The translations under genes were made by a program, and so were the position numbers. This document shows, one piece after another, positions 11,447-57,034 of a stretch of DNA of 64,000 nucleotides (its first letter is position 1; every line of letters starts with the position of its first letter). The stretch is from assembly GCA_937920105.1 (NCBI GenBank), contig CALETH010000028.1, positions 19,273-83,272 on the forward strand. Reading direction: 5' to 3'. The notes beneath the pieces were generated by a model. The model had not been told where the DNA came from, did no database searches, and was given only the letters and a program-made list of their open reading frames with translations. The DNA comes from an uncultured Bacteroidota bacterium. GTDB lineage: Bacteria > Bacteroidota > Ignavibacteria > UBA10030 > UBA8401.

Positions 11447-11544
11447 AAGAATGTTGTTCAATTTATGAAATTTAAAAACGTGTTGCAAACAAAGAAAAAT
11501 TGTATTTAGAAGATGAAATCCATAAATTTTACCTGCTAAAAACA

Positions 11545-11575
11545 GACTAGTCAAGTTTTTAAAACTTGACTAGTC
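11545..11575. repeat. 31-bp AT-centred palindrome GACTAGTCAAGTTTTTAAAACTTGACTAGTC
   Basis: Lies in the divergent rlmN/uvrA intergenic region. Same family as 4557 and 53035. Confidence 0.7.
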
Positions 11576-11596
11576 TCCCTCTAACGAAAAATAAAT

Positions 11597-20535: not shown

Positions 20536-20791
20536 AAACCTTTAGGATTTCTGAATACTTCATTGATAATTGTTCATTGATAATTGAATTTTTGTTTGCA
20601 CGCTTTTTGTGTCCCGTGCTTTTTACGGGATTTGTTTATATATTTAACCATGATTAAAAGATTTGGAAGATTACCATGATTTTTATATTCATAGTAAATT
20701 TTCTGAGTACTCATTACTGACAACTGATTACTTTTTTCTTAATTCATAATTCTTACTTTTTTTACTCACTTAATTTTAAAGGATAATATCG

Positions 20792-22621
20792 ATGAAAAAA
20801 CTCACCCTCGCACTCTTCTTGTGCACCACCTTCGCCCTCTACGCACAAAACGGACCAGGCGGCATTGGCAAAACTGATGGCTCTTCCCCAGGACTTACTT
20901 TATGGTTAGATGCTGCAGACACAAGTACTATTACACTTATTAGCGATAGTGTTTCTCAATGGAGAGATAAAAGCGGAAAAACCAATCACACCTCTTCCAT
21001 TGCAGGAAGTCGCCCTCTCTACCAAACCAATAAATTTAATGAATTACCGGCAATACGGTTTGGCAGTGGGGGACTTTCAACTTATTTACAAACAACAAAT
21101 AATTTACCTCTTGATAATGCCACAATTTTTATTGTGTATAGAGATACACTACCCACAAATCTTACTGAACAATTAATTTCTTGTGGAACCAATACTTTAG
21201 GATTTTTTGCTAGATTAACTGGAGGTAATAATAATGTAGTAGGTTCTTTTTCGTCAGCCACAGGAATAACAGCAACATTTTCTCGTCCTGATACATCACA
21301 CATATTTATGCTACGACGGAATGGTACAACACAAGATATTTGGGGAGATGGACTTCAAAAAGTATCAACAAGTTCTGGCAGTGTGGCTACAACATCTTCT
21401 TCTCCATTGAGAATAGGTTATAGTAGTGTTAATACTTCTCCTTTTAACGGTTGGATAAAAGAAATCATCATCTACAACTACGCACTCAACGAAGCCGAAC
21501 GTGCTTTAGTAGAAAACTACCTCTCCGCAAAATGGAACATCCCACTTATGGCTAATGATATTTATAGTGGAGATAATTCTGGTTATGATTTTAATGTTGC
21601 AGGAATTTATCTTTATAACCGAGCGTTTAATTCTTTAAATGTTGCAACTTCCGATGGGCTTACTATACGTAATAGTACATTTTTTTATGCGGACAATGAC
21701 TACATTACATTTGGACATCAACAAAGTGGTATAAATAGTGTTATTGATGTAATGATAGACCAAGGAAATGCAACCAAATGTTGGTCAAGAAATTGGTCAA
21801 TCACAAAAAATAGTCCCGACCCAACTTCAGATAGACTCATTGATATAGTATTTGATTTTAGTGATGCAGGAATGAATATTACACCAAGTGGAACATATTA
21901 TCTTCTTAAATCCAGTGATGGTACAACATGGTCAGAAGTTGCAAACCATTCTACCATACAAAATGTAGACCAAGTATTTTTTAATAATATAGAGTCAAGC
22001 AACTTTCCCACAGGAACTATTATCACCATCGGAGCAAGTAGTGCAACAGCACTTCCAGTTACACTCACCTCATTTACCGTAACACTGCAAAACAATACAC
22101 CACATCTCCAATGGCAAACTGCAAGTGAGGTTAATAGCAAAGGGTTTAATGTACAGAGGTCAGAAATCAGTAATCAGAACTCAGTTTGGAAAACAATTGG
22201 TTTTGTAGCAAGCAAAAATAGTACATCAAACTATACACAAAACTATAGTTTTATAGATAAATCTGCAATGAGTGGAAAAAATACCTACCGTCTCCAACAA
22301 ATAGATAACGATGGAAAAACTCAATACAGCCAAGAATATTCTATCACTGTTGTACCAGGTGAGTATTTTGTTTCTGAAAGTTATCCAAACCCATTCAATC
22401 CAACAACAAGTATCAACTATCAAATACCAACAAACAATCTGGTAACATTGAAAGTCTATAATTTACTCGGAGAAGAAATTGCAACATTAGTGAATGAAGA
22501 AAAACCCGCAGGAACATACAACGTCAACTTTGATGGCAGTTCACTTCCCAGTGGAATGTATTTCTACAAACTCAATGCTGGTAAGTTTTCTGAAACCAAA
22601 AAAATGATGTTGTTGAAGTAG
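20792..22621 (+). CDS. Secreted protein with a T9SS C-terminal sorting domain
   Basis: Signal peptide MKKLTLALFLCTTFALYAQ. C-terminus YPNPFNPTTSINYQIP...KVYNLLGEEIATLVN...YFYKLNAGKFSETKKMMLLK. Confidence 0.8.
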   Translation: MKKLTLALFLCTTFALYAQNGPGGIGKTDGSSPGLTLWLDAADTSTITLISDSVSQWRDKSGKTNHTSSIAGSRPLYQTNKFNELPAIRFGSGGLSTYLQTTNNLPLDNATIFIVYRDTLPTNLTEQLISCGTNTLGFFARLTGGNNNVVGSFSSATGITATFSRPDTSHIFMLRRNGTTQDIWGDGLQKVSTSSGSVATTSSSPLRIGYSSVNTSPFNGWIKEIIIYNYALNEAERALVENYLSAKWNIPLMANDIYSGDNSGYDFNVAGIYLYNRAFNSLNVATSDGLTIRNSTFFYADNDYITFGHQQSGINSVIDVMIDQGNATKCWSRNWSITKNSPDPTSDRLIDIVFDFSDAGMNITPSGTYYLLKSSDGTTWSEVANHSTIQNVDQVFFNNIESSNFPTGTIITIGASSATALPVTLTSFTVTLQNNTPHLQWQTASEVNSKGFNVQRSEISNQNSVWKTIGFVASKNSTSNYTQNYSFIDKSAMSGKNTYRLQQIDNDGKTQYSQEYSITVVPGEYFVSESYPNPFNPTTSINYQIPTNNLVTLKVYNLLGEEIATLVNEEKPAGTYNVNFDGSSLPSGMYFYKLNAGKFSETKKMMLLK

Positions 22622-35030: not shown

Positions 35031-36515
35031 TTATTTTATCATTATCATTTTTTTTGTTTCAGAAAATTTGCCTGCTGTGAGACGGTAATAATATATTCCA
35101 CTTGTTAATGATGAAGCATTAAATGGTATTTGATATGCTCCTGCTTGCATTTCTTGATTGAGTAATGTTGTTATTTCTTTTCCTAAAATATTGTACACTT
35201 TTAAAATTACTTTTTCATTGGTGGGGATTTGAAATTGTATTTCTGTGGTTGGGTTAAATGGATTGGGATAGTTTTGTTGTAGTGTATAATTTTCTGGGAT
35301 ATTTATTAATTCTCTCTTTATTGTTGTAATTGTATTCCCTTTATTTAACACAATTGCTATTTGATTTTTTGTATATACTTCAGTAAATCGAGTAGCAATA
35401 ATATCTTGGTAATTATCATTGTTAATATCTGCTACTTGAAATGATGTAAGTGTATCAATTCCTAATTTTACTGGAATTGGATTTTGAAATGTTCCATTTC
35501 CATTACCTAATAAATACCACAATGTATCTGATATAATACCTTTCAGAGGAGTAAATGTAGTTGCTACAAAAATATCAAGTTTTCCATCATTATTAAAATC
35601 TCCTACTTGTGGTTGTATTTCACCAAGGTTTAGATTGGTTTTAGTAGAAATTAAAGAAGATGAAAAATCTCCTACTCCTGTACCAAATTGTACTTTTACT
35701 GTATCCGTGAAACGGATTTGAGAAACTAAATCTGGAATACCATCATTATTAAAATCTCCAATGTTGGAATTAAATCCTATTAAATAAGTTTTTTTAGTAA
35801 ATACCCCATTTGTTTCTTGTTTATACCAATGACCTGAGCCTTTTAGAATATCTATTCTTCCATCATTATCAAAATCTGTAAATTGTATCCATCCTACTCC
35901 ACCTCCTACATCAGGATGAGAAACTCTTGTAAATGTATTATCATGATTATTGTAATATATTCGAAGTGCTGATGAAAATTGGCTTTGTGCTTCATTAAAT
36001 GTTAAAATGATATCTTGATAACCATCATTATTAATATCAACACAACGAAGAACTTGAATATTATTACAGGTATCAGTAAAAAAGAATGTGTCTGCAATTG
36101 CACCAACTGGGTCAATTCCCATAAATATTGCCAAACCATTTCCTCCGCTACTAATAACATCCATTTTACCATCATTGTTTATGTCGGCAATATCGTACAT
36201 CAAACCATTGGAAAATACAAAATTTGTATTAACTGTGTGAGGAAAAATCTGTTCTGGTTGAAAAGTTCCATTACTATTTCCTTGTAAAACGTTATAAAAA
36301 ATACTTGTTTGAGGAACAAGCATCCCACTACTATCTCTGTAAATAGTATTTGTTCCACCAATAATATCTACTTTTCCATCATTATCGTAATCTCTGATTA
36401 AGAAATAATTTGGGTAACCATTGTATTGATAATGTGTTGGTGTTGTTTCAAATCCTTTCCATTGAGCAAAAAGATTGATGGTTATAAAAAACAGTAATAC
36501 AAATTTTTTTATCAT
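35031..36515 (-). CDS. FG-GAP/VCBS repeat protein with a T9SS C-terminal sorting domain
   Basis: Repeated D[IF]NNDG[KYRI].D[IV] motifs (six or more). C-terminus YPNPFNPTTEIQFQIP...KVYNILGKEITTLLN...YYYRLTAGKFSETKKMIMIK. Confidence 0.8.
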   Translation of the reverse strand: MIKKFVLLFFITINLFAQWKGFETTPTHYQYNGYPNYFLIRDYDNDGKVDIIGGTNTIYRDSSGMLVPQTSIFYNVLQGNSNGTFQPEQIFPHTVNTNFVFSNGLMYDIADINNDGKMDVISSGGNGLAIFMGIDPVGAIADTFFFTDTCNNIQVLRCVDINNDGYQDIILTFNEAQSQFSSALRIYYNNHDNTFTRVSHPDVGGGVGWIQFTDFDNDGRIDILKGSGHWYKQETNGVFTKKTYLIGFNSNIGDFNNDGIPDLVSQIRFTDTVKVQFGTGVGDFSSSLISTKTNLNLGEIQPQVGDFNNDGKLDIFVATTFTPLKGIISDTLWYLLGNGNGTFQNPIPVKLGIDTLTSFQVADINNDNYQDIIATRFTEVYTKNQIAIVLNKGNTITTIKRELINIPENYTLQQNYPNPFNPTTEIQFQIPTNEKVILKVYNILGKEITTLLNQEMQAGAYQIPFNASSLTSGIYYYRLTAGKFSETKKMIMIK

Positions 36516-39885: not shown

Positions 39886-40662
39886 TTACCTCTTACTTCT
39901 TAATTCTCTATCAATATATTTTTTTGCTTGTTCTTGTGTGAGTGCGGAAAAATTTTTGTAGCGTTCGTGAACATCGATAATTTCTTCTAATGCTTTTGCA
40001 ACGAGTTCTTGATTTTCCCACGTTTTTAAATCTCGAACAACAATTTCTAAACATCCTTTTTTGTACGCGATTTGTCCGAGTACGTGAACTAATGTATTTT
40101 TTACTCTTGTTGTGGTATCATGTTGGAGTTCTTTTAATAATGGTAAAATATCGTGTGGATATTTTCTTCCGCGGAGTTCTATTCCGTGACATATTTCTCT
40201 GCGGATTTCTTTGTTTTCGTGATGAAGATATTTTTTTGCCCATTGCAAAACGGGTTTCGGATTTTTTTCTCCCATTTTTTTGATTGAACCGATAACAGCG
40301 TTTCGTACTGAATGATGTTCATCAAATAATCCTATATCAAAAAAGTGCTCTACTTTTTCAAAATCTTTTATTCCAATTTCTCCCGCAGCATTGATAGTTG
40401 TTTGTCGGATTTTAAAGTTATCGGATTTCAGTAATTTTTTTAATAAAGAAGTTATTGGTAATTGTAAAGGTGGGTGTGTTTTGTAAATTTTCCCGATGGA
40501 AAGATATGCGGTTTTTCTGATGTAGGTATCTTCATCAGAAAAATAGGTGGGTATTTTTTTGAGTTTTTGTTTTTGGATTTCTGAAAAAATTTCTGTGTTG
40601 ATTTTTTCTACAAGTGTGGTTCGTTGGGGTTTGGAAAGTGTATAAAAAGACATTTTTTTCAA
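39886..40662 (-). CDS. HEAT-repeat protein, DNA alkylation repair enzyme family (AlkC/AlkD-like)
   Basis: About 250 aa of HEAT-like repeats (IRKTAYLSIGKI, VRNAVIGSIKKM, RVKNTLVHVLGQI). Confidence 0.5.
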   Translation of the reverse strand: MKKMSFYTLSKPQRTTLVEKINTEIFSEIQKQKLKKIPTYFSDEDTYIRKTAYLSIGKIYKTHPPLQLPITSLLKKLLKSDNFKIRQTTINAAGEIGIKDFEKVEHFFDIGLFDEHHSVRNAVIGSIKKMGEKNPKPVLQWAKKYLHHENKEIRREICHGIELRGRKYPHDILPLLKELQHDTTTRVKNTLVHVLGQIAYKKGCLEIVVRDLKTWENQELVAKALEEIIDVHERYKNFSALTQEQAKKYIDRELRSKR

Positions 40663-40957
40663 TTAAAAATTAACAATGAAAAATTATCAATATTATTTTT
40701 TTTAAATTACAGATATAAGATTTTTTTCTCGCAAAGACGCAAAGTCGCTAATCTTTTAATAAATGGAACACTGGGTATACATTTTATTTCTATAATTACA
40801 ATAATTCATTGTTTTTTTCACATAAAAAATAGAACACTGATTTGTTATCCGCCACGGGCGGATTACTATGATATTCACTGAAATATTCTATCTTCTACCT
40901 TCTGAATTCTGACTTCTTAATTCTCACTTACTCCACTACTCATTTACTCAACTACTT

Positions 40958-43852: not shown

Positions 43853-44776
43853 TCAACTCATCTCCAACATTTTTTGAATTGGTTTAAGTGCTTTTTCCAT
43901 AATTTCTGCACTTAAAGTAATTTGTGGAGATTTATTTTTCATACAAAGATAAAGTTTTTCCATCGTGTTGAGTTTCATATACGGACATTCATTGCATGAA
44001 CAGTTTGCTTCCGGTGGTGCGGGAATAAATTTTTTCTCCGGACATTTTTTTTCCATTTGATGTAATATTCCGGATTCGGTTGCAACAATAAATTCTTTGT
44101 GTGGATTTGTTTGAACATAGTTTAACAATGCACTGGTAGAACCAATAAAATCTGCTTTTTCTAAAATATGTTCTTCACATTCCGGATGTGCAATGAGTTG
44201 AGCATTTGGATGTTGCATTTGCAAGCCGATAATTTTACGTTCGCTAAATGTTTCGTGAACAATACATGCACCATTCCACAACAACATGTCTCTTCCCGTT
44301 TTCTTTTTAAGATAGCCACCTAAATTTTTATCCGGAGAAAATAAAATTTGTTGGTTGCGTGGAATTTGATTAATGATTTTTTCTGCATTGCTGGATGTGC
44401 AAATAATATCACTTAACGCTTTTACTTCTGCGGTGCAATTAATGTAAGTGATAGCAAGATATTCCGGATGGATTTCTCTAAATTTTTTAAATGCGGGTGG
44501 TGGACAACTATCCGCAAGAGAACAGCCAGCTTCTAAATCCGGCAACAATACTAATTTTTTTGGATTGAGAATTTTTGCTGTTTCTGCCATAAAATGAACA
44601 CCAGCAAACACAATAACATCCGCCGATGTTGAGGCAGCACGACGTGCAAGTTCCAAACTATCTCCCACAACATCCGCAATATCCTGAATTTCTCCTTCTT
44701 GATAATAATGTGCGAGGATTACTGCGTTCAGTTCTTTTTTAAGTTGGTGGATTTTTTCTACAAGGTTGGTTTCCAT
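43853..44776 (-). CDS. nadA: Quinolinate synthase
   Basis: [26 protein letters not shown]...FMAETAKIL and conserved Cys residues. Confidence 0.95.
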
Positions 44777-44862
44777 ATTTTTCTTAAGTTTTTGCAGCCT
44801 ATTTTTATTTGTATAAGATACAGACTAATGCAAGCAGTGTCAATAAAAACAAAAAAGGACGG

Positions 44863-44887
44863 ATTTTTCATCCGTCCTTAGATAACT
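44863..44887 (-). terminator. Rho-independent terminator (minus strand) after the LRR gene
   Basis: On the minus strand: aaggacggat-gaaaa-atccgtcc followed by ttttttg. Confidence 0.65.
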
Positions 44888-45551
44888 CAAACCATGATAA
44901 TCTTTTCATCGTACCAATCATGGTTTACTTCACCAACACCATTTTCTTAATTTCACTAAATTTTCCCGCAGTCAGTCTGTAAAAATATATTCCACCGGAT
45001 AATTGACTTCCATCAAAATTCACTTCATACACTCCAACTTTCTTTTCTCCATTCACTAGTGTTGCGACTTCTTTCCCTAACATATCATACACTTTCAATG
45101 TTACATAACTACTTATTGGTAGTTGATAATTGATTAGTGTTGATGGGTTGAATGGGTTCGGATAGTTTTGAGATATACTATATTCTGTTGGTACAAAATT
45201 CTTTTCTGGATGAATTGATGTGGTGGGTAGAGTTCCAGTCCCATATGCTTTCAAGGTATCTAATCCTTTGGTGGTGTTACTGGTAAGGATGATTTGGGTG
45301 GAATCTTTTCCTAATCCATTTGGAGTGAACTTTATTGTTATATTACTTGTTTGAGTAAATGGAATGTTATATTGACTGCTTCCTACAACCATAAATTTTG
45401 AATTTGCAATATTGATTGTATTGATTTTCAAGGTATCTCCTCCCATACATTGTACGGCAAAGGACATATCTTTATTGCTGCCTATACCAACATTCCCAAA
45501 ATCTATTGTGGTAGATGAATAATTTGATGTGGGAGCAGAAAGAGTCGTAAA
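44884..45551. repeat. Approximately 668-bp segment apparently identical to 48911-49578
   Basis: Side-by-side reading shows no mismatch. It covers the 3' UTR hairpin AACCATGAT...ATCATGGTT plus the last ~200 codons of both LRR genes. Confidence 0.8.
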
Positions 45552-46556
45552 ATAGCTTGCTGAAGAATATGGACTATTTCCTTTTATATTTTGTGCACGC
45601 ACTCCCCAAGCATATGTTGTATTATACAATAACGGTCCTATTTGTTTGGATGTATCGGTAAGCGTGGTATCAAGAAGAATAGTAACATTATTTCTTACTA
45701 CATGAAGAAAATATTTATGGGCAGAGGAAACTTTTTTCCATGTTAGTGTGGGATACAATGATTGATTGGTCGCATTGTTTACTGGGCTTACTATAATCGG
45801 TGTTGTTGGTGATGGAAGAACTACATACATTGCTGACATATCTTTTATTATGGATATACCTGATGGTGGATTTACCAATACATAAATAGTAGTAAGATTA
45901 GCATTAGAAGAACAATTTAAATTTTGTAATGAGGTATTGGTACTAATATCTAATGTAGTCAGTTTAGTGGAAGAACAATATAAATTTTGTAATGCGGTAT
46001 TGGTACTCACATTTAAACTCGTCAGATTAGTGGAAGAACAATATAAATATAGTAATGCGGTGGCTCCACTCACATTTAATGTACTGAGATTAGCATTATT
46101 AGAACAATCTAAATATTCTAATGCGGTATTGGTACTCACGTTTAAACTCGTCAGATTAGTGGAAGAACAATCTAAAGTTTGTAATGCGGTGGCTCCACTC
46201 ACATTTAATGTGCTGAGATTAGCATTAGTAGAACAATCTAAATATTCTAATGCGGTATTGGTACTCACGTTTAATGTGCTGAGATTTGGATTATCAGAAC
46301 AATCTAAAGTTTGTAATGCGGTAAATTTTTCTATCCCTTGTAAATTGGTAATTTGAGAGCTGGATATCTCTATGATACGTACGGCACTGATATTTTGTAC
46401 TATTACCGTATCATTAGTACCTTGGGTTATAGCGTTAGCACTGTTAATAAGTGCAGTTCTAAAATTTTGGTCAGGCACCCATACTTTTGTTTGGGCAGTG
46501 GTTATTCCTACAACCAGTAAGAATAATGCAACGAGTTTGGTAAGTTGTGTTTGCAT
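44925..46556 (-). CDS. LRR + FN3-like surface protein with a T9SS C-terminal sorting domain (paralog A)
   Basis: Signal peptide. Units with period of about 22-23 aa (LDCS.N.NLSTLNVS.NTAL). C-terminus YPNPFNPSTLINYQLP...KVYDMLGKEVATLVN...YFYRLTAGKFSEIKKMVLVK. Confidence 0.8.
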   Translation of the reverse strand: MQTQLTKLVALFLLVVGITTAQTKVWVPDQNFRTALINSANAITQGTNDTVIVQNISAVRIIEISSSQITNLQGIEKFTALQTLDCSDNPNLSTLNVSTNTALEYLDCSTNANLSTLNVSGATALQTLDCSSTNLTSLNVSTNTALEYLDCSNNANLSTLNVSGATALLYLYCSSTNLTSLNVSTNTALQNLYCSSTKLTTLDISTNTSLQNLNCSSNANLTTIYVLVNPPSGISIIKDMSAMYVVLPSPTTPIIVSPVNNATNQSLYPTLTWKKVSSAHKYFLHVVRNNVTILLDTTLTDTSKQIGPLLYNTTYAWGVRAQNIKGNSPYSSASYFTTLSAPTSNYSSTTIDFGNVGIGSNKDMSFAVQCMGGDTLKINTINIANSKFMVVGSSQYNIPFTQTSNITIKFTPNGLGKDSTQIILTSNTTKGLDTLKAYGTGTLPTTSIHPEKNFVPTEYSISQNYPNPFNPSTLINYQLPISSYVTLKVYDMLGKEVATLVNGEKKVGVYEVNFDGSQLSGGIYFYRLTAGKFSEIKKMVLVK

Positions 46557-46775
46557 AAAAATTGCTCCTTAGTTTTAATGAAGTATAAAATAAAAATTAG
46601 GAAATTATACGGATTTTAATTTTCATTATCAATGAGTAATTTTTGGATTCCTATTTTCATCCTAAATTCCCACTGGCTAACACACAATCCACCACTGCAG
46701 AGGACTACATTCTAACTTCTATATTCTGACTACGAAATTCTGTGTTCTGTATTCTGAATTTCGTATCTTTGAAGC

Positions 46776-48635
46776 ATGAAAATTCCAAATGAAAAAATAG
46801 AAGAAATCCGCAATGCTGTAGATATCGTTGAATACATTGGTGGTTTTATCAAACTCAAAAAGCGTGGAAAAAATTATCTCGGATTATGTCCATTTCATAA
46901 TGAAAAAACACCATCATTTAATGTTAGTTTAGATAAACAAATGTATTATTGTTTCGGATGCCAACGTGGTGGAAATGTTTTTACGTTCATTATGGAATAT
47001 GATAATATTTCTTATGTAGAAGCCGTTACTGTTCTCGCCGAAAAAACCGGAATTCCTATCACGAAAATAGAAAACAATGTTCAAGAAAGTGAAACAGAAA
47101 TTTTATATTCTGTTTGTACTTTCGCAGCAAAAGCATTCTATTATAATCTCAAAACTGAAGAAGGAAAATTTGCGCAAGACTATTTTTTGAAACGTGGCTT
47201 TTCCGAAAAAACTATTACCACGTTCGGTTTAGGATATTCTTTACGCGGATGGGAATCTCTTATAGAAAAAGCAAAAGAGGAAGGTCTATCACTTTATAAT
47301 TTGGAAAAAGTTGGCTTACTCAAAAAACGAGATGATGGTTCGTATTATGATGTATTTCGCGGAAGAGCAATGTTTCCCATTTTTTCTCCGCTCGGAAGAG
47401 TGATTGCGTTTGGCGCAAGAAAATTATATGATGATGACCCTTTAGCAAAATATATCAATTCACCAGAAACACCAATTTATCAAAAAAGCAAAACGCTGTA
47501 CGGACTTTGGCAGGCAAAGGAAAGTATTCGCGAAAAGGATTTTGTGATTTTGGTGGAAGGTTACGCTGATGTGATTTCTGTTTTTCAAGCAGGAATAAAA
47601 AATGTGGTGGCTTCCAGCGGAACGGCGTTAACCACAGAACAAATTCAACTTCTTTCCCGCTACACCAAAAATATTATCTTTTTGTATGATGCAGATTCCG
47701 CTGGTGCCAATGCTATGATGCGTGGTGTGGATTTGATTTTGGAAAATGGTTTGGATGTTCGTGTTGTGCAATTACCGGAAGGCAATGACCCGGATTCTTT
47801 TGTGCAAAAAAATGGCGTGAATGCTTTGCATGATGCAATCACACGAGCAACAACATTTTTGAATTTTAAAGCAAGAATGTTGGAACGTGAAGGAAAATTT
47901 TCTACTCCGGAAGGAAAAGCAGAAGCAATACGAACATTGGTCCAAACTATCGCAAAAGTGAAAGACCCGTTACGTCAAGCATTTTTTATTAAAGAAATTG
48001 CTGAAGAATATCATATTTACGAATCTACCTTGTATTCTGAATTAGAAAAATGGAAAAAGAAGGATTTTACAAAAGCATCATTTCAATCAAATACTTCTAA
48101 TACAAAAAAATCTCCAGAGATTCCGCAAAAAAATTCTTCTACCACTCTTCCCTTAGAAGAAAAAGAATTATTATTCGTGCTATTACATTCTCCACAAACA
48201 ATGATGCCATTCGTTTTTCGGCATCTTTCTGTAGATGAAATTTCACATCCACAAATACAAAAGATTATTCAATTATTGGTAGATGAGTTTGATAACCACG
48301 GTTCATTTGATAGTCATCAAATATTAACATTGTTAGAAAATGATGAAGAAAAGAAAATATTTTCTGAAGTATTATTTTCTCGTGAGCATGAAGATACACG
48401 AATTCAACGAGAAGTTGGGGCGCAAGAACGTGATGGGAGAATTTTTGAACAGGCGTTGGGTGCCATTAAAAGCATCAAAAAGAAAAAATTGGAGCAGGAT
48501 TTACAGTATAATAGAGTAGAAATTCAAAATGCTTTGCTGAATGGTATTGATACAATTGCTTTTTTAAAAGAACAACAACAAATTATTCAAAAAATTCGTG
48601 ATGTGGAAAAATATTCAATGAAAAATTTGCAATGA
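46776..48635 (+). CDS. dnaG: DNA primase
   Basis: CPFHNEKTPSFNVSLDKQMYYCFGCQRGGNVFTF zinc ribbon. TOPRIM EGYADVISVFQAG...LYDADSAG. Confidence 0.95.
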   Translation: MKIPNEKIEEIRNAVDIVEYIGGFIKLKKRGKNYLGLCPFHNEKTPSFNVSLDKQMYYCFGCQRGGNVFTFIMEYDNISYVEAVTVLAEKTGIPITKIENNVQESETEILYSVCTFAAKAFYYNLKTEEGKFAQDYFLKRGFSEKTITTFGLGYSLRGWESLIEKAKEEGLSLYNLEKVGLLKKRDDGSYYDVFRGRAMFPIFSPLGRVIAFGARKLYDDDPLAKYINSPETPIYQKSKTLYGLWQAKESIREKDFVILVEGYADVISVFQAGIKNVVASSGTALTTEQIQLLSRYTKNIIFLYDADSAGANAMMRGVDLILENGLDVRVVQLPEGNDPDSFVQKNGVNALHDAITRATTFLNFKARMLEREGKFSTPEGKAEAIRTLVQTIAKVKDPLRQAFFIKEIAEEYHIYESTLYSELEKWKKKDFTKASFQSNTSNTKKSPEIPQKNSSTTLPLEEKELLFVLLHSPQTMMPFVFRHLSVDEISHPQIQKIIQLLVDEFDNHGSFDSHQILTLLENDEEKKIFSEVLFSREHEDTRIQREVGAQERDGRIFEQALGAIKSIKKKKLEQDLQYNRVEIQNALLNGIDTIAFLKEQQQIIQKIRDVEKYSMKNLQ

Positions 48636-48650
48636 ACAATTATCAATGGA

Positions 48651-48705
48651 GTATGTGAGTAGTGGAGTATATTGAGTAATTGAGTAACGAAGTAGATGAG
48701 TATTT
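48651..48705. repeat. GAGTAGTGGAGTA direct-repeat block
   Basis: Sequence gagtatgtgagtagtggagtatattgagtaattgagtaacgaagtagatgagta. Confidence 0.55.
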
Positions 48706-48885
48706 TTTACAAAGAAAAAATCAAAGATGAATTCGCCTTGGTGAAGTAAAAATACCAATGAAAGATATAAGATTTTTTCCTCGCAAAGACAAAATCAATG
48801 GAAAATTTGCAATGAACAATTATCAATTTTAGATTTCTGTTAAACTTGTTCTCAAATGCAATACAAGCAGTCAATAAAAATACAA

Positions 48886-48908
48886 AGAGTCCCGTTATAA
48901 GCGGGACT
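48886..48908 (-). terminator. Rho-independent terminator (minus strand) after LRR gene B
   Basis: Sequence gagtcccg-cttataa-cgggactc followed by tttgtattttt on the minus strand. Confidence 0.6.
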
Positions 48909-48951
48909 CCAACTCAAACCATGATAATCTTTTCATCGTACCAATCATGGT

Positions 48952-50715
48952 TTACTTCACCAACACCATTTTCTTAATTTCACTAAATTTTCCCGCAGTC
49001 AGTCTGTAAAAATATATTCCACCGGATAATTGACTTCCATCAAAATTCACTTCATACACTCCAACTTTCTTTTCTCCATTCACTAGTGTTGCGACTTCTT
49101 TCCCTAACATATCATACACTTTCAATGTTACATAACTACTTATTGGTAGTTGATAATTGATTAGTGTTGATGGGTTGAATGGGTTCGGATAGTTTTGAGA
49201 TATACTATATTCTGTTGGTACAAAATTCTTTTCTGGATGAATTGATGTGGTGGGTAGAGTTCCAGTCCCATATGCTTTCAAGGTATCTAATCCTTTGGTG
49301 GTGTTACTGGTAAGGATGATTTGGGTGGAATCTTTTCCTAATCCATTTGGAGTGAACTTTATTGTTATATTACTTGTTTGAGTAAATGGAATGTTATATT
49401 GACTGCTTCCTACAACCATAAATTTTGAATTTGCAATATTGATTGTATTGATTTTCAAGGTATCTCCTCCCATACATTGTACGGCAAAGGACATATCTTT
49501 ATTGCTGCCTATACCAACATTCCCAAAATCTATTGTGGTAGATGAATAATTTGATGTGGGAGCAGAAAGAGTCGTAAATTGATTTATCCTATAAGGACTG
49601 GTTCCCTTAACGTTTCTTGCTCGTACTTGCCATGTGTATATTGTATTATATAGTAACGGACCTATTTTTTTGGTGGTATCAACCAGTGTAGTATCTTTAA
49701 AAACTATAATATTGTTGTGTGATACTTCCAATTGATAGGTATGGGCAAAAGAAACTTTTCCCCATTTTAATGTTGGATATAATGATTGATTGGTCGCATT
49801 ATTTATTGGACTTAGTAAGATTGGCATTGCCGGAACTGGTGGAGTTACATAATTTGCTGACATATCTTTTACTTCTATTACACCTGGTGGTGGAAATGGA
49901 AGTATCCATACATATATAGTGGTAAGATTTGGATTTAACGAACAATCTACATCTGTTAATGCTGTATTTGCACTGATATCTAAAATACTAAGGTTATTAC
50001 CAAAACATTTTAAATATGTCAACGTTGTATTTCTATTTAAGTTCAATGTAGTTAGATTATTATTAACACAACTTAACGATATCAATGCTGTATTATTACT
50101 CACATCTAAGGTACTGATGTTATTATTAGAACAAGATAGTGTTTGTAATGCTGTATTTGTACTCACATCTAAGGTACTGATGTTATTATTAGAACAATAT
50201 AATGTTTGTAATGCTGTATTATTACTCACATCTAAGGTAGTAATATTCATAGAGGCACAATCTAAATGTGTTAATGCTGTATTTGCACTCACATCTAAAG
50301 TAGTGACCTTGTTGTTCGAACAATCTAAAACTTGTAATGCTGTATTATTACTTACATTTAGTATAGAAAGATTAGTGTTATAAAAACAGTTTAAATATGT
50401 TAATGCTAAATTGTTACTTACATCCAATGTGGTAAGTTGATTAAAAGCACAACTTAAATATTGTAATGCAGTAAATTTTTCTATTCCTTGTAAGTTAGTA
50501 ATTTGTTTATTATTAATAATTAAAGTATCAATCAAATTAATATTTGGCACTACTACAGTATCACTATTACCTTGAATAATATTATAAGTTGGAGAATGAT
50601 TAATAAGCGCTTTTCTAAAACTTGTATCAGGTACACATACTTTTGTTTGGGCAGTTATCTCTACAATAAATAATAATAATGCCACAAGGGTAAGTTTGGT
50701 TTTTATCATAATCAC
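48952..50715 (-). CDS. LRR + FN3-like surface protein with a T9SS C-terminal sorting domain (paralog B)
   Basis: Same architecture as 44925-46556. The last ~200 aa are identical. The N-terminal LRR region has diverged. Confidence 0.8.
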   Translation of the reverse strand: MIMIKTKLTLVALLLFIVEITAQTKVCVPDTSFRKALINHSPTYNIIQGNSDTVVVPNINLIDTLIINNKQITNLQGIEKFTALQYLSCAFNQLTTLDVSNNLALTYLNCFYNTNLSILNVSNNTALQVLDCSNNKVTTLDVSANTALTHLDCASMNITTLDVSNNTALQTLYCSNNNISTLDVSTNTALQTLSCSNNNISTLDVSNNTALISLSCVNNNLTTLNLNRNTTLTYLKCFGNNLSILDISANTALTDVDCSLNPNLTTIYVWILPFPPPGVIEVKDMSANYVTPPVPAMPILLSPINNATNQSLYPTLKWGKVSFAHTYQLEVSHNNIIVFKDTTLVDTTKKIGPLLYNTIYTWQVRARNVKGTSPYRINQFTTLSAPTSNYSSTTIDFGNVGIGSNKDMSFAVQCMGGDTLKINTINIANSKFMVVGSSQYNIPFTQTSNITIKFTPNGLGKDSTQIILTSNTTKGLDTLKAYGTGTLPTTSIHPEKNFVPTEYSISQNYPNPFNPSTLINYQLPISSYVTLKVYDMLGKEVATLVNGEKKVGVYEVNFDGSQLSGGIYFYRLTAGKFSEIKKMVLVK

Positions 50716-50894
50716 TCCTTATTTGTTTATGGTTTATGATAGAATTATATGAACTAAATTATCTATTGTCAATATTCTAGAACTATTTTGACTTTTTGTA
50801 TTTTGAATTCTACATTTTTTCTCAAACTTTTATCATTTCTAAAAAATAAAAAGTATTCCGTTACAATGGAATCTCTACAAATTAAAATCATAGT

Positions 50895-52220
50895 CTACAT
50901 CTTCTTCATCATTGCTTCACCAAATTCTGAACACTTAATTTCTTTTGCACCATCCATTAAACGAGCAAAATCGTACGTTACAGTTTTTGCACCAATCGCT
51001 CCATTCAAGCCCTTTAAAATTAAATCCGCTGCTTCAGTCCAACCCATGTACCGCAACATCATTTCTCCGCTTAATACAACTGAACCGGGATTTACTTTAT
51101 CAAGATTCGCATATTTGGGAGCTGTTCCGTGGGTTGCTTCAAAAATTGCGTGCCCGGTGATGTAATTAATATTTCCACCAGGTGCGATTCCAATTCCGCC
51201 AACTTGTGCGGCTAACGCATCAGAAAGATAATCTCCATTTAAATTTAATGTTGCAATCACATCAAAATCTTCCGGACGTGTGAGCACTTGTTGTAAGGTA
51301 ATATCAGCGATTGCATCTTTTATAATAATTCCTGCCCCGGGTTTTCCATCGGGAATTTTACACCACGGTCCGCCATCGATTTCCACAGCACCAAAATATT
51401 CTTTCGCTACTTGATATCCCCAATCCCGAAAAGCACCTTCAGTAAATTTCATGATGTTGCCTTTGTGAACTAATGTTACATTTTTGCGTTTGTTTTCTAT
51501 TGCATAACTAATTGCACTGTGTACAAGTCGGACTGTTCCGGAATAACTTACGGGTTTAATCCCAATTCCCACATTAATATCTGTGGGGAAATTTTTTGCG
51601 CCAACAAGTTTCCAAAATTCTTCGCTTTTCTCTTTTGTGTTGAAACGAATTTTTTCGAAATCTTTTGGAAATTCTTTTGCAAGAAAATCTAAAACTTTTT
51701 GTGCTTCGGGTGAGCCGCCTTTGTACTCAATTCCTGCATAAATATCTTCTGTGTTTTCGCGAAAAATTACCATATCAACTTTTTCAGGATGTTTTACTGG
51801 CGATGGAACTCCGGTAAACCATTGCACTGGACGCAAACAGACATACAAATCTAAAATTTGTCTCAACGCAACATTGAGTGAACGAATTCCTCCTCCAACA
51901 GGAGTAGTCAATGGTCCTTTAATTCCTACAAGATATTCTTTGAATGCTTCGATAGTATCATCATGCAACCATGTATTTGGTCCGTATACTGTGTTTGCTT
52001 TTTCTCCGGCGTACACTTCAAACCATGTGATTTTTCTTTTTCCATTGTATGCTTTTGCAATGGCAGCATCAAACACTTTTTGTGAAGCACGCCAAATATC
52101 TGGTCCAGTTCCATCTCCTTCTATAAATGGTATGATGGGATTTTCTGGAACATTGAGTTTTCCATTTTGGATGGTGATTTTTTTTCCGTTGGTTGGTGGG
52201 GTGAGTTTTACGTATGACAT
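50895..52220 (-). CDS. icd: NADP-dependent isocitrate dehydrogenase
   Basis: 441 aa. [14 protein letters not shown]...SLNVALRQ...[10 protein letters not shown]. Confidence 0.95.
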
Positions 52221-52288
52221 AGAAAATGAGATTGATGTGAAACAATGTAGGGACAGAACATGTTCTGTCCCTACCTGTTATGTTTTTG

Positions 52289-52375
52289 CGGAGAGAGTGG
52301 GATTCGAACCCACGGTACCCTTACGGGTACACTACCTTTCCAGGGTAGCCAATTCAACCACTCTTGCATCTCTCC
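52289..52375 (-). tRNA. tRNA-Ser (anticodon GGA)
   Basis: Reverse complement folds as a type II tRNA. Acceptor stem GGAGAGA/TCTCTCC, anticodon stem CTACC/GGTAG with loop CTGGAAA, a long variable arm (TGTACCCGTAAGGGTAC), and T-arm GTGGG-TTCGAAT-CCCAC. Confidence 0.85.
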
Positions 52376-52514: not shown

Positions 52515-53024
52515 ATGCCAAAAGTCTACTGCACTTCTTTTGATTCCAAAATAGGAACTGTGTATGTTGCCTCTACAGAAAAAGGTGTTTGTAAAATTAC
52601 TATTCCGAAAGAATCCAAAAAAGATTTTTTCAAATGGCTTTCACTTCATTTTGAAAAAGATGACGTCATCGAAAACAAAAGTAGAAACAAAGAAATTATT
52701 GAACAACTCAATCGTTACTTCAACGGAAAGTTAGTAAAATTTTCTCTTCCTTTAGATTGTGTTGGAAGTGATTTTGAACTTCGTGTGTGGAAAGAACTCA
52801 AAAAAATTCCGTACGGAACAACTATTTCTTATAAGCAATTAGCCAAACGAGCAGGTGTTCCACGCGGATTTCAAGCCGTTGGAAAAGCCAATGGACACAA
52901 TCCAATTCCTATCATTATACCATGTCATCGTGTTATTGGAAACGATGGCTCTCTCACCGGTTATGCTGCAGGGACAAAAACAAAAGAATTTCTTCTTCGT
53001 TTAGAAGGTGCAATTATTTTGTAA
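52515..53024 (+). CDS. ogt: Methylated-DNA--protein-cysteine methyltransferase
   Basis: IPIIIPCHRVIGNDGSLTGY (PCHRV active site). Confidence 0.9.
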   Translation: MPKVYCTSFDSKIGTVYVASTEKGVCKITIPKESKKDFFKWLSLHFEKDDVIENKSRNKEIIEQLNRYFNGKLVKFSLPLDCVGSDFELRVWKELKKIPYGTTISYKQLAKRAGVPRGFQAVGKANGHNPIPIIIPCHRVIGNDGSLTGYAAGTKTKEFLLRLEGAIIL

Positions 53025-53034
53025 TATTTTTTTA

Positions 53035-53065
53035 GATTTGTCAAGTTTTTAAAACTTGACAAATC
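53035..53065. repeat. 31-bp AT-centred palindrome GATTTGTCAAGTTTTTAAAACTTGACAAATC
   Basis: Identical to the copy at 4557-4587. Lies inside the segment bracketed by the duplicated ogt 3' end. Confidence 0.7.
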
Positions 53066-53291
53066 TCTTCTCACAAAAAATATTTCCCATCCCATACTAA
53101 AACTATCAAAAAGTTTTCTTATTTTAGTTCTGCAAAAATAATTTCTTCCTTCCTAATTTTTTCAGAATGAATTTCTTCTTCGTTTAGAAGGTGCAATTAT
53201 TTTGCAATATGTTGAATTTCCGTAACCCTGCCAGAGTTTTAAACTCTGACAGGGTTTAGTTAAAAATAATTTCCTTCCTAATTTTTTTAGA

Positions 53292-55517
53292 ATGAATTCT
53301 TTACTTCAACAACTTAATCCTGTACAACAACAAGCCGTTTCCACTATTGATGGACCAGTGATGATTGTTGCAGGTGCCGGCAGCGGAAAAACCCGCGTTC
53401 TCACCTATCGCATTGCCTATCTCATTCATTCTAACATAAAGCCGTACGAAATTCTTGCACTCACCTTTACCAATAAAGCTGCACGAGAAATGAAAGAACG
53501 CATTCATTCCATTGTTGGACCTCAAGCAACTAATGTGTGGGCAGGAACATTTCATTCTATCTTTGCAAGAATTCTTAGACAAGAATGTGAAGTGCTTGGT
53601 TATCAAAGAAGTTTTACTATTTATGATACTGATGATTGTCTCTCACTCATCAAAAATATTATGTCCGCAATAAATCTTTCTGCACAACAATTTAATCCGC
53701 GAGCAGTGTACTCTCGCATCAGCGGAGCAAAAAATCAAATGATTTCTCCTGCAGAATATGAAAATATTGCAAAAGATATTTTTGAACAAAAGGTTGCACA
53801 AGTTTATCATGAATATCAACAACGATTATACAAATCTAATTCTATGGATTTTGATGATTTATTATTGAAACCCATTGAACTCTTTCAATCTCATCAACAT
53901 ATTTTAGAAAAATATCAACATCGTTTTCGTCACATTTTGGTCGATGAATATCAAGATACTAATCGTGCTCAATATACATTGATAAATTTATTGGCATCAC
54001 GTTTTAAAAATATTTGCGTTGTTGGTGATGATGCACAAAGTATTTATTCATTTCGTGGTGCCGATATTCGTAATATTTTAGATTTTGAACGAGATTATCC
54101 CGAAGCACAAACATTTCGATTAGAACAAAATTATCGTTCTACAAAAACTATTCTCGCTGCGGCAGATGCTGTTATTAAACGCAACAAAAATCAAATTCAC
54201 AAAACGTTGTGGACTGAAAATATTCAAGGTGATGGTATCACATTATTGGAAACCGAAGATGATAAAGATGAAGGAATGCAAATTGTTCATCGCATAAAAG
54301 AGCAATGCACAAAATATAAATATGATTTAAAAGATTTTGCCGTTCTCTATCGCACCAATGCACAATCTCGTTCTATCGAAGATGCAATGCGGCGAGCAGG
54401 AATTCCCTACATCATTGTTGGGGGAATTGAATTTTACAAAAGAAAAGAAATTAAAGATGTATTAGCCTATTTGCGAATACTCGTCAATCCCAAAGATGAA
54501 GAAAGCATGTTACGCATTATCAATTATCCCACACGAGGAATTGGTGAAACAACAATAGAAAAAATCCGAGAATATGCCAAAGAAAAAAATCTTTCTTTTT
54601 TTGATGCACTGCATTCTGTTACAAATATTCCATCACTCACCGAACGAAATAAACAAAGTATTATTCAGTTCATTCGTCTATTAGATAAATATCTTATACT
54701 CAAAAAAGAATTTTCTACCAACGAACTTGTTCGCACCTTAGTTGATGAGTTAGGAATTCTCAAAATGTATAAAGATGAAGGAACGTTGGAATCTTTAGGC
54801 AAGTGGGAAAATATTCAAGAATTACTTTCTGCGATTAGTGAATTTATTGCTGCCAAACCCGACGCAACATTAGAAACATTTTTAGAAGAAGTTGCATTAG
54901 TTTCTGCAACAGATAATTTGACGGATAATAAAAATACCATAACGTTAATGACTCTCCACGCTGCCAAAGGATTGGAATTTCCTGTAGTGTTTATTGCCGG
55001 AACAGAAGAAGGTCTGCTCCCACTCTATCAAGTTGCATTGGATGTTCACGAATTGGAAGAAGAACGAAGATTATTTTATGTGGGAATTACTCGTGCGATG
55101 AAAAAACTTTTCCTCACCCATTCACGCATTCGTTATCGTTTTGGAGATTTAACATATCCCATACTTTCTCGTTTTGTTGAAGAAATTGAAAATTCTCTTA
55201 TTATAAAAGAAACATCACGTCCAACAATTCCAAAAACTACTTCACGCAATGCATTTACGAAATATGAAAACAAAAAATCTTTCTACAAAAAAAATACGGA
55301 AGAGAATTTTATCTTTCGTGATGAAGAACCAACTTATGATGAATCACAAGAGCAGCCAACATTAAAAATTGGTTCACTGGTTCAACATGAAGTTTTTGGA
55401 AAAGGAAAAATTCTTCATCTTACAGGAAATGGTGAAGCAGCAAAAGCGGTAGTGTTATTCCAAAGTGTGGGACAAAAAAATTTGATGCTGAAGTTTGCTC
55501 ATCTAAAACTACTATAA
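53292..55517 (+). CDS. pcrA: ATP-dependent DNA helicase, UvrD/PcrA/Rep family
   Basis: 741 aa. AGAGSGKTRVLTYRIAYLI Walker A. Motifs II (DEYQDTN) to VI (VGITRAMKKLFLT) are present. Confidence 0.93.
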   Translation: MNSLLQQLNPVQQQAVSTIDGPVMIVAGAGSGKTRVLTYRIAYLIHSNIKPYEILALTFTNKAAREMKERIHSIVGPQATNVWAGTFHSIFARILRQECEVLGYQRSFTIYDTDDCLSLIKNIMSAINLSAQQFNPRAVYSRISGAKNQMISPAEYENIAKDIFEQKVAQVYHEYQQRLYKSNSMDFDDLLLKPIELFQSHQHILEKYQHRFRHILVDEYQDTNRAQYTLINLLASRFKNICVVGDDAQSIYSFRGADIRNILDFERDYPEAQTFRLEQNYRSTKTILAAADAVIKRNKNQIHKTLWTENIQGDGITLLETEDDKDEGMQIVHRIKEQCTKYKYDLKDFAVLYRTNAQSRSIEDAMRRAGIPYIIVGGIEFYKRKEIKDVLAYLRILVNPKDEESMLRIINYPTRGIGETTIEKIREYAKEKNLSFFDALHSVTNIPSLTERNKQSIIQFIRLLDKYLILKKEFSTNELVRTLVDELGILKMYKDEGTLESLGKWENIQELLSAISEFIAAKPDATLETFLEEVALVSATDNLTDNKNTITLMTLHAAKGLEFPVVFIAGTEEGLLPLYQVALDVHELEEERRLFYVGITRAMKKLFLTHSRIRYRFGDLTYPILSRFVEEIENSLIIKETSRPTIPKTTSRNAFTKYENKKSFYKKNTEENFIFRDEEPTYDESQEQPTLKIGSLVQHEVFGKGKILHLTGNGEAAKAVVLFQSVGQKNLMLKFAHLKLL

Positions 55518-55534
55518 TATAAAAGGAATTATTT

Positions 55535-57034
55535 ATGTATAATTTTTTCTACGTAATTTTATTAACAATAATAATTCATACAACAAATATTGCTCAAACA
55601 AAGGTATGGATTCCTGATGAACAATTTCGTAATGCGTTAATTAACCACTCTCTTAATTATAACATTAGTCAGAGCATCGGTGATACAGTTATTGTACCCA
55701 ATATTGCTGATATATATTTTTTAAAAATCAGTACTAATAATATTGCTAGTTTACAAGGAATAGAGAATTTTACTCATCTTGTATATTTGACATGTGGTGG
55801 TAATAAATTAATGAAATTAGATATAAGTAAAAATCAAGAATTAATATACTTAGATTGTGCAGTTAACCAACTCACAACATTAAATGTGAGTAAAAATACA
55901 AAATTAAAAACATTAATCTGCAATTACAATCAACTTACTGCTTTAAATGTAGAAAACAACATAAAATTAGAAAACTTAAATTGCTCTTCTAATAAAATTA
56001 TTTCTTTAAATTTAAAGAACAATATAAATCTCACAACATTAGATTGTTATTATAATCAACTTACTATCTTAGAAATAAACAAGAATAAAAAACTAGAAAA
56101 TTTAGACTGTTCTTCTAACCGCTTTACTTCATTAGATGTAAAAAATAATCATAATTTAAAAAAATTAAACTGTTACAATAATCAACTTACAAATTTGAAT
56201 GTGAGTCAAAATACAAATTTAACACATTTAAAATGTTATCTTAATCAATTTATAAAATTGGACATACATAAAAATACAGAATTACAATATTTAGATTGTT
56301 CCAAAAATCAACTTGTAAAATTAGATATAAGCCAGAACGGAAAATTAGTCTTTTTAGATTGTAATTCCAATAAACTTGATACATTAATAACAAATAAAAC
56401 AGAGATAAATTTAACATTAGAAACTTTATACTGTTTTTCTAATCAACTTACCACATTAGATATGACTAAAAATTTAGCGTTGAAATCTTTGAACTGTTCT
56501 TCTAATCAACTCACTGCATTAGATATAACTAAAAATTTTTTATTGAAGTTTTTGAACTGTTCTTCTAATCGACTCACCGCGTTAGATATAACTAAAAATT
56601 TTTCATTAGAAGTTTTAGATTGTTCTGTTAATCAACTTAATACATTAAATATAAACCAAAATACAAATTTAGTAGAATTAAAATGTTCTTCTAATAAAAT
56701 TAATACATTAAGTATAAATCAAAATATAAACCTGAATTATTTGTATTGTTCCTCAAACCAACTTACTAGTTTAGAATTAGGTAGTGTAAAATTAAAATTA
56801 TTAGATTGCTCTTTCAATCAACTTGGTACATTAAATGTAACCCAAAATACAAATTTAGAAATATTAAACTGTTCTTCTAATCAACTTACTAATTTAGATT
56901 TAAGTAAAAACCTAGAATTGATAAGCTTAAATTACAAGAAAACTAAAATTGAGAATATTGACCTTAGCAAAAATACAAAGTTACGAGAATTGTTTGATGA
57001 TGCAATTAAAGAAGAGGTTGAAGAAGCTCGATAA
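55535..57034 (+). CDS. Leucine-rich-repeat protein (third LRR paralog, no T9SS C-terminal domain)
   Basis: N-terminus (AQTKVWIPDEQFRNALINHS) is homologous to the N-termini of the two T9SS LRR proteins. About 20 LRR units (L.CS.N.LT.L). Ends without FN3 or sorting domains. Confidence 0.7.
   Translation: MYNFFYVILLTIIIHTTNIAQTKVWIPDEQFRNALINHSLNYNISQSIGDTVIVPNIADIYFLKISTNNIASLQGIENFTHLVYLTCGGNKLMKLDISKNQELIYLDCAVNQLTTLNVSKNTKLKTLICNYNQLTALNVENNIKLENLNCSSNKIISLNLKNNINLTTLDCYYNQLTILEINKNKKLENLDCSSNRFTSLDVKNNHNLKKLNCYNNQLTNLNVSQNTNLTHLKCYLNQFIKLDIHKNTELQYLDCSKNQLVKLDISQNGKLVFLDCNSNKLDTLITNKTEINLTLETLYCFSNQLTTLDMTKNLALKSLNCSSNQLTALDITKNFLLKFLNCSSNRLTALDITKNFSLEVLDCSVNQLNTLNINQNTNLVELKCSSNKINTLSINQNINLNYLYCSSNQLTSLELGSVKLKLLDCSFNQLGTLNVTQNTNLEILNCSSNQLTNLDLSKNLELISLNYKKTKIENIDLSKNTKLRELFDDAIKEEVEEAR

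Follow-up and report, generated by a model that had tools for sequence, protein, structure and literature searches.

A perfectly identical 3' block in two diverged leucine-rich repeat surface-protein genes around dnaG, probably a product of recent gene conversion in an uncultured Ignavibacteria-like bacterium

We analysed a stretch of 64,000 nucleotides (hereafter the window) from an uncultured member of the Ignavibacteria (Bacteroidota; assembly GCA_937920105.1, contig CALETH010000028.1, positions 19,273 to 83,272). Two genes in it, LRR_A and LRR_B, code for predicted surface proteins with leucine-rich repeats (LRRs) and lie on either side of the DNA primase gene dnaG. Comparison of the window with itself, base by base, showed that positions 44884-45551 equal positions 48911-49578 (offset 4027) at 668 of 668 bases, without mismatch or indel. 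This identity, found within a pair of strongly diverged genes, probably reflects an old duplication followed by recent, possibly recurrent, interlocus gene conversion of the module encoding the protein stalk and the sorting signal. The elements concerned are the following.

44884-45551, minus strand: copy A of the identical block, comprising 208 codons at the end of LRR_A together with its stop codon and a further 41 nt of 3' untranslated region (UTR); 668/668 identity
48911-49578, minus strand: copy B of the identical block, made up of the 3' end of LRR_B and 41 nt of UTR
44925-46556, minus strand: LRR_A, 543 aa (P0001), with leader, N-cap, seven InlJ-like Cys-ladder LRRs, FN3-like domain, Ig domain and the C-terminal sorting domain (CTD) of the type IX secretion system (T9SS)
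48952-50715, minus strand: LRR_B, 587 aa from a GTG or 585 aa from the ATG at 50709 (the latter being P0002), with the architecture of LRR_A and nine LRRs
46776-48635, plus strand: dnaG, between the direct copies of the block, scoring 461 bits against TIGR01391 (cut-off 284) and carrying the Pfam domains

The initial annotation of this DNA, made from the letters alone, had described a gene pair on one strand with dnaG in between and a shared block of about 670 bp. Both open reading frames (ORFs) are indeed intact, and the coordinates given for the block were exactly right, its length being 668 nt with no mismatch.

The block was first seeded by a repeat finder as a 300-nt pair of 100% identity and proved to be the sole long repeat of the 64-kb window, present in two copies. 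The homologous unit was aligned over its full length, starting in the diverged 3' flank and ending at the start codons; the alignment has 1715 ungapped columns with 333 differences, none of which falls in the block. Outside it, LRR_A and LRR_B share 68% of their bases and the longest remaining identical run is 23 nt; this level of about 68% covers the remainder of both genes and about 55 nt past the block. Upon permutation of the variable sites (10,000 times), the longest run had a mean of 29 and a maximum of 71, and 0 of the 10,000 permutations reached the observed one. The pattern is the one by which gene conversion is recognised, namely a tract far more similar than the homologous sequence surrounding it, with sharp edges. 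The single-nucleotide differences that normal divergence would have left along the block, raised as the counter-case by the initial annotation, are absent from all 668 bases.

Both end points of the block lie at exactly homologous, in-frame positions. Its 5' edge is the first base of codon 336 (the F of FTTLSAP), in the last strand of the FN3-like domain, where identity drops sharply to 68%, as had been noticed earlier for positions 45551/49578; there is no identity gradient beside the edges of the tract. From this point, the block takes in the end of that last strand, then a HYDIN/VesB-type Ig domain with a linker on either side, the T9SS type A sorting domain that follows, and finally the stop codon with the 41 nt of 3' UTR. 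It therefore accounts for 38% of the gene (208 of the 543 LRR_A codons), less than the "3' halves" that were originally proposed to be shared, and the FN3-like domain itself (aa ~245-339), which had been placed within the block, is diverged. As for the other parts assigned to the shared tail, the sorting domain and a hairpin do belong to it; the hairpin overlaps the stop codon, however, and the true terminators lie outside the block and differ between the genes.

To quantify divergence by region, synonymous (dS) and non-synonymous (dN) distances between LRR_A and LRR_B were calculated according to Nei and Gojobori.

Leader and N-cap: dS 0.67, dN 0.36
LRR array: dS 0.75, dN 0.32
FN3-like domain: dS 0.90, dN 0.30
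Tail (138 synonymous and 486 non-synonymous sites): dS 0, dN 0

Outside the tract dS is uniform, and the FN3-like domain, which borders the tail, is the most diverged part at synonymous sites. With a proportion of synonymous differences (pS) of 0.48 in the flanking regions, a tail free of synonymous change has a probability of about 2e-40. The 41 non-coding bases after the stop codon are identical in both copies as well. The identity is thus not the result of selection at the protein level, since synonymous and non-coding sites share it. Application of the rule of three to zero differences bounds the divergence of the tract at less than about 0.5% overall and less than about 2% at silent sites, and the age of the tract is therefore a small fraction of that of the duplication. 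These data support one of the two processes that the initial annotation had put forward for this surface-exposed LRR/T9SS family, recent gene conversion: there is no difference at 138 synonymous and 41 non-coding sites, in a duplicate whose dS is otherwise about 0.8.

Sequence on the 3' side of the block was then considered together with the signals that may govern transcription of the two genes.

44890-44925, minus strand (same sequence at 48917-48952): hairpin within the block that overlaps the stop codon; its stem folds in both contexts
44855-44879, minus strand: LRR_A intrinsic terminator, immediately past the block; its stem, AAGGACGGAT/ATCCGTCCTT, precedes a T run
48886-48910, minus strand: LRR_B intrinsic terminator, immediately past the block; its stem, GGAGTCCCG/CGGGACTCT, precedes a T run
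44827-44849, minus strand (partner 48860-48880): diverged homologous 3' flank past the terminator, from local alignment
46604-46632, minus strand: sigma-70-like promoter site of LRR_A, TTGATA-17-TATAAT, 11/12, by consensus match only
50744-50772, minus strand: sigma-70-like promoter site of LRR_B, TTGACA-17-TATAAT, 12/12, by consensus match only

The hairpin sequence has only these two matches in the window. The stems of the two rho-independent terminators are unrelated, and beyond them a 3' flank (TTTTTATTGAC..TGCTTG..ATT) aligned with a score of 30, compared with 15.5 +/- 2.4 for shuffled sequences, none of 2000 shuffles reaching the score. Diverged homology is therefore present on both sides of the tract, in the FN3-like, LRR and N-cap regions 5' of it and in the flank past the terminators 3' of it. 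Together with the unrelated terminator stems, the homology past the block indicates that the identical tract is nested in an older duplicate, which argues against a recent partial duplication. Upstream of the two start codons, similarity was no better than in shuffles. LRR_A and LRR_B are intact and, judging by the promoter-like sites and the separate terminators, apparently expressible.

The domains encoded by the block and by its surroundings were assigned from profile searches and from an AlphaFold (AF2) model of LRR_A residues 225-543 (mean predicted local distance difference test, pLDDT, 80.5), which consists of three beta-sandwich domains joined by low-confidence linkers. The first (aa ~245-339) has pLDDT values above 90. 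Pfam fn3 remained below threshold on it (E 0.004, 17.8 bits, cut-off 25), and Foldseek matched the 225-543 model to tandem FN3 arrays; its designation as FN3-like is therefore based on the AF2 model and Foldseek. The second domain (aa ~354-436) corresponds to the Pfam family HYDIN_VesB_CFA65-like_Ig (aa 345-439, 35.7 bits, cut-off 25.5), with a sub-threshold match to NCBIfam choice-of-anchor D. The third (aa ~460-541) is the T9SS type A sorting domain, Por_Secre_tail (PF18962, aa 465-540), and scored 38 bits against PF18962 (cut-off 27) and 41 bits against TIGR04183 (cut-off 23) in both LRR_A and LRR_B. Each protein starts with a hydrophobic leader, ending in ..TAQ/TK as judged by eye.

Three further ORFs with T9SS type A sorting domains were observed, at 35031-36515 (minus strand), 22352-22618 (plus strand) and 5854-6162 (minus strand), one of them coding for an FG-GAP repeat protein, which makes five T9SS cargo genes in 64 kb. 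These three suggest that a T9SS may be in use in this organism. Their sorting domains (ORFs ending 22618, 35034 and 5854) are 44-66% identical to the A/B tail at the protein level, and secretion therefore does not require identity.

In the heads of the proteins, the repeat unit is 21/22 residues long with one cysteine each. The array is a clear homologue of the LRR domain of Listeria internalin J (PDB 3bz5, E 1.8e-42, for LRR_A aa 23-223). The InlJ model of NCBIfam, NF033187, gave 94, 145 and 254 bits for the LRR paralogs of this locus (a third one, LRR_C, is described below) against a cut-off of 1700; none of them would count as a full internalin J, the homology being confined to the LRR domain. 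The arrays of LRR_A and LRR_B differ, as had been noted, with seven and nine Cys-ladder repeats, respectively.

45972-46322, minus strand: unit of two LRRs duplicated in tandem within the array of LRR_A, with a period of 129 nt and 2.7 copies at 90% matches
55535-57034, plus strand: LRR_C, third paralog, 499 aa, with homologous leader and N-cap and 18 Cys-ladder LRRs

The two-repeat duplication in LRR_A, whose array contains exact internal repeats of up to 46 nt, indicates that the arrays change by unit duplication. The longest exact matches between heads are 20 nt for A-B, 16 nt for A-C and 18 nt for B-C, and nothing therefore indicates recent exchange in the LRR arrays or with LRR_C. To ask where amino-acid change falls, LRR codons were classed by their position relative to the L-x-C motif, with five predicted concave-face x positions per repeat. 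At these predicted concave-face positions, dN was 0.68 and dS 0.51 (34 codons from two sequences, with ambiguous repeat register and alignment), as compared with dN 0.22 and dS 0.79 in the rest of the array. This is a hint that amino-acid change may be concentrated at the predicted concave face, a distribution that would match diverging binding specificity. Within the arrays, two antisense ORFs were observed on the plus strand, at 45937-46356 (139 aa) and 49919-50383 (154 aa); most probably these merely mirror the repetitive coding sequence and do not represent genes.

LRR_C is 42-49% identical to LRR_A and LRR_B at the protein level over about 250 residues (leader, N-cap and LRRs). Profile searches detected no FN3-like, Ig or sorting domain in it, and no remnant of a tail was found downstream, in agreement with the earlier description of a tail-less third paralog. 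It is a complete ORF and not a truncated silent cassette. It starts 18 nt past the stop codon of pcrA (55517-55535) and lacks strong promoter- or terminator-like sites of its own, which suggests co-transcription in an odd pcrA-LRR_C pairing.

As regards the mechanism, recurrence and direction of the exchange between LRR_A and LRR_B, we infer the following course. An old duplication would have produced two T9SS-secreted LRR-FN3-Ig-CTD genes with internalin-J-like Cys-ladder heads, and these copies would have diverged to a dS of about 0.8. The 668-bp 3' segment of one copy, which holds the Ig and sorting domains, the stop codon and the 41 nt of UTR, would then have been replaced with that of the other. 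This would have been a non-reciprocal homologous recombination of direct repeats separated by 4 kb, carried out by the general recombination machinery or through template switching, either in one very recent event or in the latest of repeated homogenising events. The LRR heads, putatively ligand-binding and lying outside the tract, would continue to diverge, which would yield two differently specific heads on one stalk-and-sorting module. Reciprocal crossing-over between the direct copies would delete dnaG, presumably with lethal effect; such deletions would be counter-selected, and the pair may persist because of this.

Several points weigh against this course. Perfect homology outside the block extends over only about 20-23 nt, which is at or below the usual length for initiating RecA-dependent exchange and makes a poor substrate for it. 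A single conversion between copies this diverged would thus be hard, and repeated homogenisation or a non-RecA route is favoured. Two ways out can be proposed: either the tail was homogenised repeatedly and never diverged, its edges being fixed at the limit of homology, or a single event of the template-switch type took place. In addition, the sequence comes from a single contig of a metagenome-assembled genome (MAG), the concave-face comparison has the narrow basis given above, and an orthologous LRR_A/LRR_B pair was not found in any of the collections searched.

These collections were as follows. The exact LRR_A and LRR_B proteins occur once in a collection of 5.8 billion proteins, on one NCBI/ENA contig (91,959 bp), and exact-protein look-ups for LRR_A, dnaG and P0002 returned nothing on record. 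No other carrier of the A/B tail was present among the 5.8 billion proteins. In that collection, the next-best matches to the full-length protein have about 45% identity, in the LRR part, and those to the FN3-Ig-CTD module have 33-41% identity and are joined to unrelated N-terminal domains, many of them being annotated as Ignavibacteria or Bacteroidota. A scan of genome collections with DnaG retrieved MAGs of Bacteroidota and Ignavibacteria as nearest relatives (47-69% identity), none of which has the LRR pair. Metagenomes of the Joint Genome Institute (JGI) contained no close relative, the tail reaching at best 43% identity over its whole length and 62% over the sorting domain. Among 160 other loci (1.9 Mb, 80 of the loci being centred on T9SS tails) no dispersed block comparable to this one was found, a weak piece of evidence because short-read assemblies tend to break at such repeats.

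Relatives were also informative about the position of LRR_B. The genes outside the pair are placed as follows.

43853-44776: nadA, outside the LRR_A/LRR_B pair
50895-52220: icd, outside the LRR_A/LRR_B pair

In two relatives, dnaG and icd converge with no gene between them, at a distance of 75-130 nt (L002, 11863-11992; L003, 11854-11930). In the window, LRR_B and its flanks (48636-50894, 2.26 kb) stand between the two, and LRR_B is therefore a lineage-specific insertion. In no relative that was fetched do nadA and LRR_A adjoin dnaG. Genes within 10 kb on each side are housekeeping genes or other cargo (nadA, icd, ogt, pcrA, pntB, a GCS2 ligase, glycosyltransferases and an FG-GAP T9SS protein), and no recombinase, invertase, transposase or reverse transcriptase is among them.

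We investigated the possibility that the identity was made by assembly or polishing. The tails might be merely similar (e.g. 95-99%) and have been rendered identical by bubble-popping, consensus polishing or gap filling; or one true tail might be missing, the assembler having threaded through the other. A perfect repeat of 668 bp exceeds the k-mers used with short reads, and some assembler heuristic must have resolved the block. Both proteins come from one contig of one assembly, and genome and metagenome collections hold no independent assembly of the organism. Against this, the copies join four different flanks, in continuous in-frame ORFs and at homologous positions; with two entries and two exits, the only linear path using all flanks would cross the block twice. 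The order from the dnaG side to the icd side over copy B agrees with the adjacency of these genes in relatives, and without a second copy LRR_A would have no sorting domain. The case of one locus mis-assembled twice, which the initial annotation had kept in view, is refuted by the different LRR heads, terminators and neighbours. At most, an artefact would turn near-identical into identical, and the step from about 68% would stay. We consider this explanation unlikely, though it is the most serious of the competitors.

A single replacement in which the 3' module of one gene was grafted onto the other, by template switching or illegitimate recombination instead of homologous recombination and with no ongoing homogenisation, would suit other features of the locus. 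The copies are direct and 4 kb apart, homology at the edges is poor (exact runs of at most 23 nt), and identity shows no gradient there, dS being highest (0.90) in the FN3-like domain. However, both ends are homologous and in frame, as homology-guided exchange would give, and the outcome of such a replacement would be indistinguishable from a conversion tract. We hold it to be rather improbable.

Two proposals give the shared tail an active role in surface variation. In the first, the Ig-CTD tail of this free-living Ignavibacteria-like lineage would be actively kept as a recombination handle for reshuffling or amplifying LRR heads, a form of programmed variation that we regard as very unlikely. 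It might act through RecA-mediated tandem amplification of the 4-kb unit (LRR_A head plus dnaG) or through head exchange among the three LRR paralogs, and the essential dnaG between the repeats would serve as a lock against loss of the unit.

The second is a programmed cassette system, in which the tail would be the handle, heads would be swapped between LRR_A and LRR_B, and tail-less LRR_C would act as a donor. Three surface-type LRR paralogs do lie within 12 kb, the number of LRRs varies (7, 9 and 18) with a recent two-repeat duplication in LRR_A, and non-synonymous change is raised at predicted binding positions. On the other hand, sequence is conserved only on the 3' side of the variable part, with no conserved handle 5' of it; no mosaic tracts connect the arrays (the longest are 16-20 nt); dS is uniform across the heads; and the surrounding 10 kb contain neither a recombinase nor a reverse transcriptase. 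All three ORFs are complete, A and B having their own promoter-like sites and terminators, and LRR_C stands on the other strand, directly behind pcrA. The cassette-exchange mechanism suggested by the initial annotation is not supported, given a start codon, leader, promoter-like site and terminator in both genes and the lack of shared head tracts above 20 nt. Nor is there support for LRR_C as the silent or donor cassette once suspected: its ORF is complete, nothing shows that it has donated sequence, and its matches do not exceed 18 nt. We therefore give this second proposal scarcely any credence.

Extreme purifying selection on the tail without recombination has a negligible probability: although the tail is a sorting signal and a stalk domain with possibly shared partners, identity at the 138 synonymous sites and 41 untranslated bases, beside a flanking pS of 0.48, refutes selection as its cause, and the other functional sorting domains of the window are only 44-66% identical.

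Other candidates were rejected outright. A diversity-generating retroelement does not fit a repeat pair without mismatches and neighbouring genes without a reverse transcriptase. A mobile element (insertion sequence, miniature inverted-repeat transposable element or integrated element) does not fit in-frame coding sequence with just two copies in the window, no transposase nearby and no match of the block in plasmid or phage collections. A structured RNA in or near the block was dismissed as well, Rfam giving chance-level matches only (sno_ZL8, E 0.8).

Small repeats were also observed elsewhere around these genes. A stretch made up of the final codons of dnaG with the stop codon and 13 nt downstream of it (AAATTTGCAATGAACAATTATCAAT, 48615-48647) is exactly repeated 180 nt further on (48795-48827). 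Related pieces occur at 40658-40738 and 20555-20586 and, with a GAGTA-rich stretch and GATATAAGATTTTTTCTCGCAAAGAC, in other intergenic regions. These repeats, which have no Rfam match, resemble either a small repeat family dispersed over intergenic regions or the product of local tandem duplication at the 3' end of a gene. Between icd and ogt lies the only tRNA gene of the window, tRNA-Ser(GGA) (52288-52375, minus strand). The 3' end of ogt (52983-53030) is duplicated 183 nt downstream (53166-53213, 94% identity), and the leader of pcrA is duplicated too (~53123-53173 and 53255-53298), so that the ogt-pcrA spacer appears to be a degenerate tandem duplication. A terminator-like palindrome, TAGATTTGTCAAGTTTTTAAAACTTGACAAATCT, found at 53033-53066, recurs at 4555-4588 and 11543-11576, in at least two other intergenic regions.

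The preferred reading, interlocus gene conversion between LRR_A and LRR_B, has several precedents. In Leptospira, ligA and ligB share a near-identical 5' block, from -266 to +1890, which ends abruptly inside an Ig domain and has been ascribed to gene conversion, likely facilitated by a tandem arrangement on some chromosomes (PMC7821625). They too are paralogous bacterial surface genes with a long shared block and a remainder unique to each. Unlike LRR_A and LRR_B, which share their 3' end and have promoter regions without detectable similarity, ligA and ligB share their 5' end and promoter and are co-regulated; domains and secretion route also differ. In Porphyromonas gingivalis, identical adhesin-encoding sequences within and between rgpA, kgp and hagA defeat automated assembly, and the authors discuss how the surface may be diversified by rearrangement of domains and by gene conversion (PMC5266723). 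These genes likewise encode T9SS-secreted surface proteins, in the same superphylum. They differ in having haemagglutinin/adhesin domains and many repeats, in a cultured pathogen with many strains, whereas in the present, uncultured organism two LRR proteins have a single Ig-plus-CTD module in common. A third precedent comes from mammals, in which conversion keeps the C-terminal parts of TLR1 and TLR6 alike (last LRRs, cap, transmembrane segment and TIR) while the N-terminal ligand-binding LRRs diverge (PMC2077338). The likeness to LRR_A and LRR_B lies in LRR paralogs with a diverging head and a homogenised tail, TLR1 and TLR6 being tandem genes; they are, however, eukaryotic, with recurrence demonstrated in nine species, and LRR_A and LRR_B are known from one genome.

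Cassette systems of antigenic variation have in common with LRR_A and LRR_B non-reciprocal recombination between paralogous surface-protein sequences. Neisseria pilE/pilS, Borrelia vlsE and Treponema tprK each combine one expression site with partial cassettes that lack a promoter; their variable segments are flanked on both sides by conserved sequence, and the variable regions are mosaic. At LRR_A and LRR_B none of these features is seen, neither the expression site with its cassettes nor the two-sided conserved sequence nor the mosaicism. Listeria internalin J resembles the two proteins in its homologous LRR head, with a period of 21/22 residues and one cysteine per repeat; it has a Gram-positive cell-wall anchor, unlike LRR_A and LRR_B, which carry FN3-like, Ig and T9SS sorting domains downstream.

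The locus is thus a new instance, in an uncultured lineage, of a known kind of gene conversion, for which ligA/ligB, rgpA/kgp/hagA and TLR1/TLR6 are the precedents. It opens no long-standing question and indicates no new mechanism. Perfect repeats of this length in MAGs have a practical consequence, as assemblies can mislead there, and read mapping, variant calling and dN/dS scans of such families would be confounded. For the biology of the family, the pair extends the known cases to an uncultured lineage of the Fibrobacterota-Chlorobiota-Bacteroidota (FCB) group and to T9SS LRR cargo, and provides a clean, small example of how multidomain surface proteins may evolve, with a stalk and secretion or anchoring module kept identical by recombination while the putative ligand-binding LRR faces diverge.

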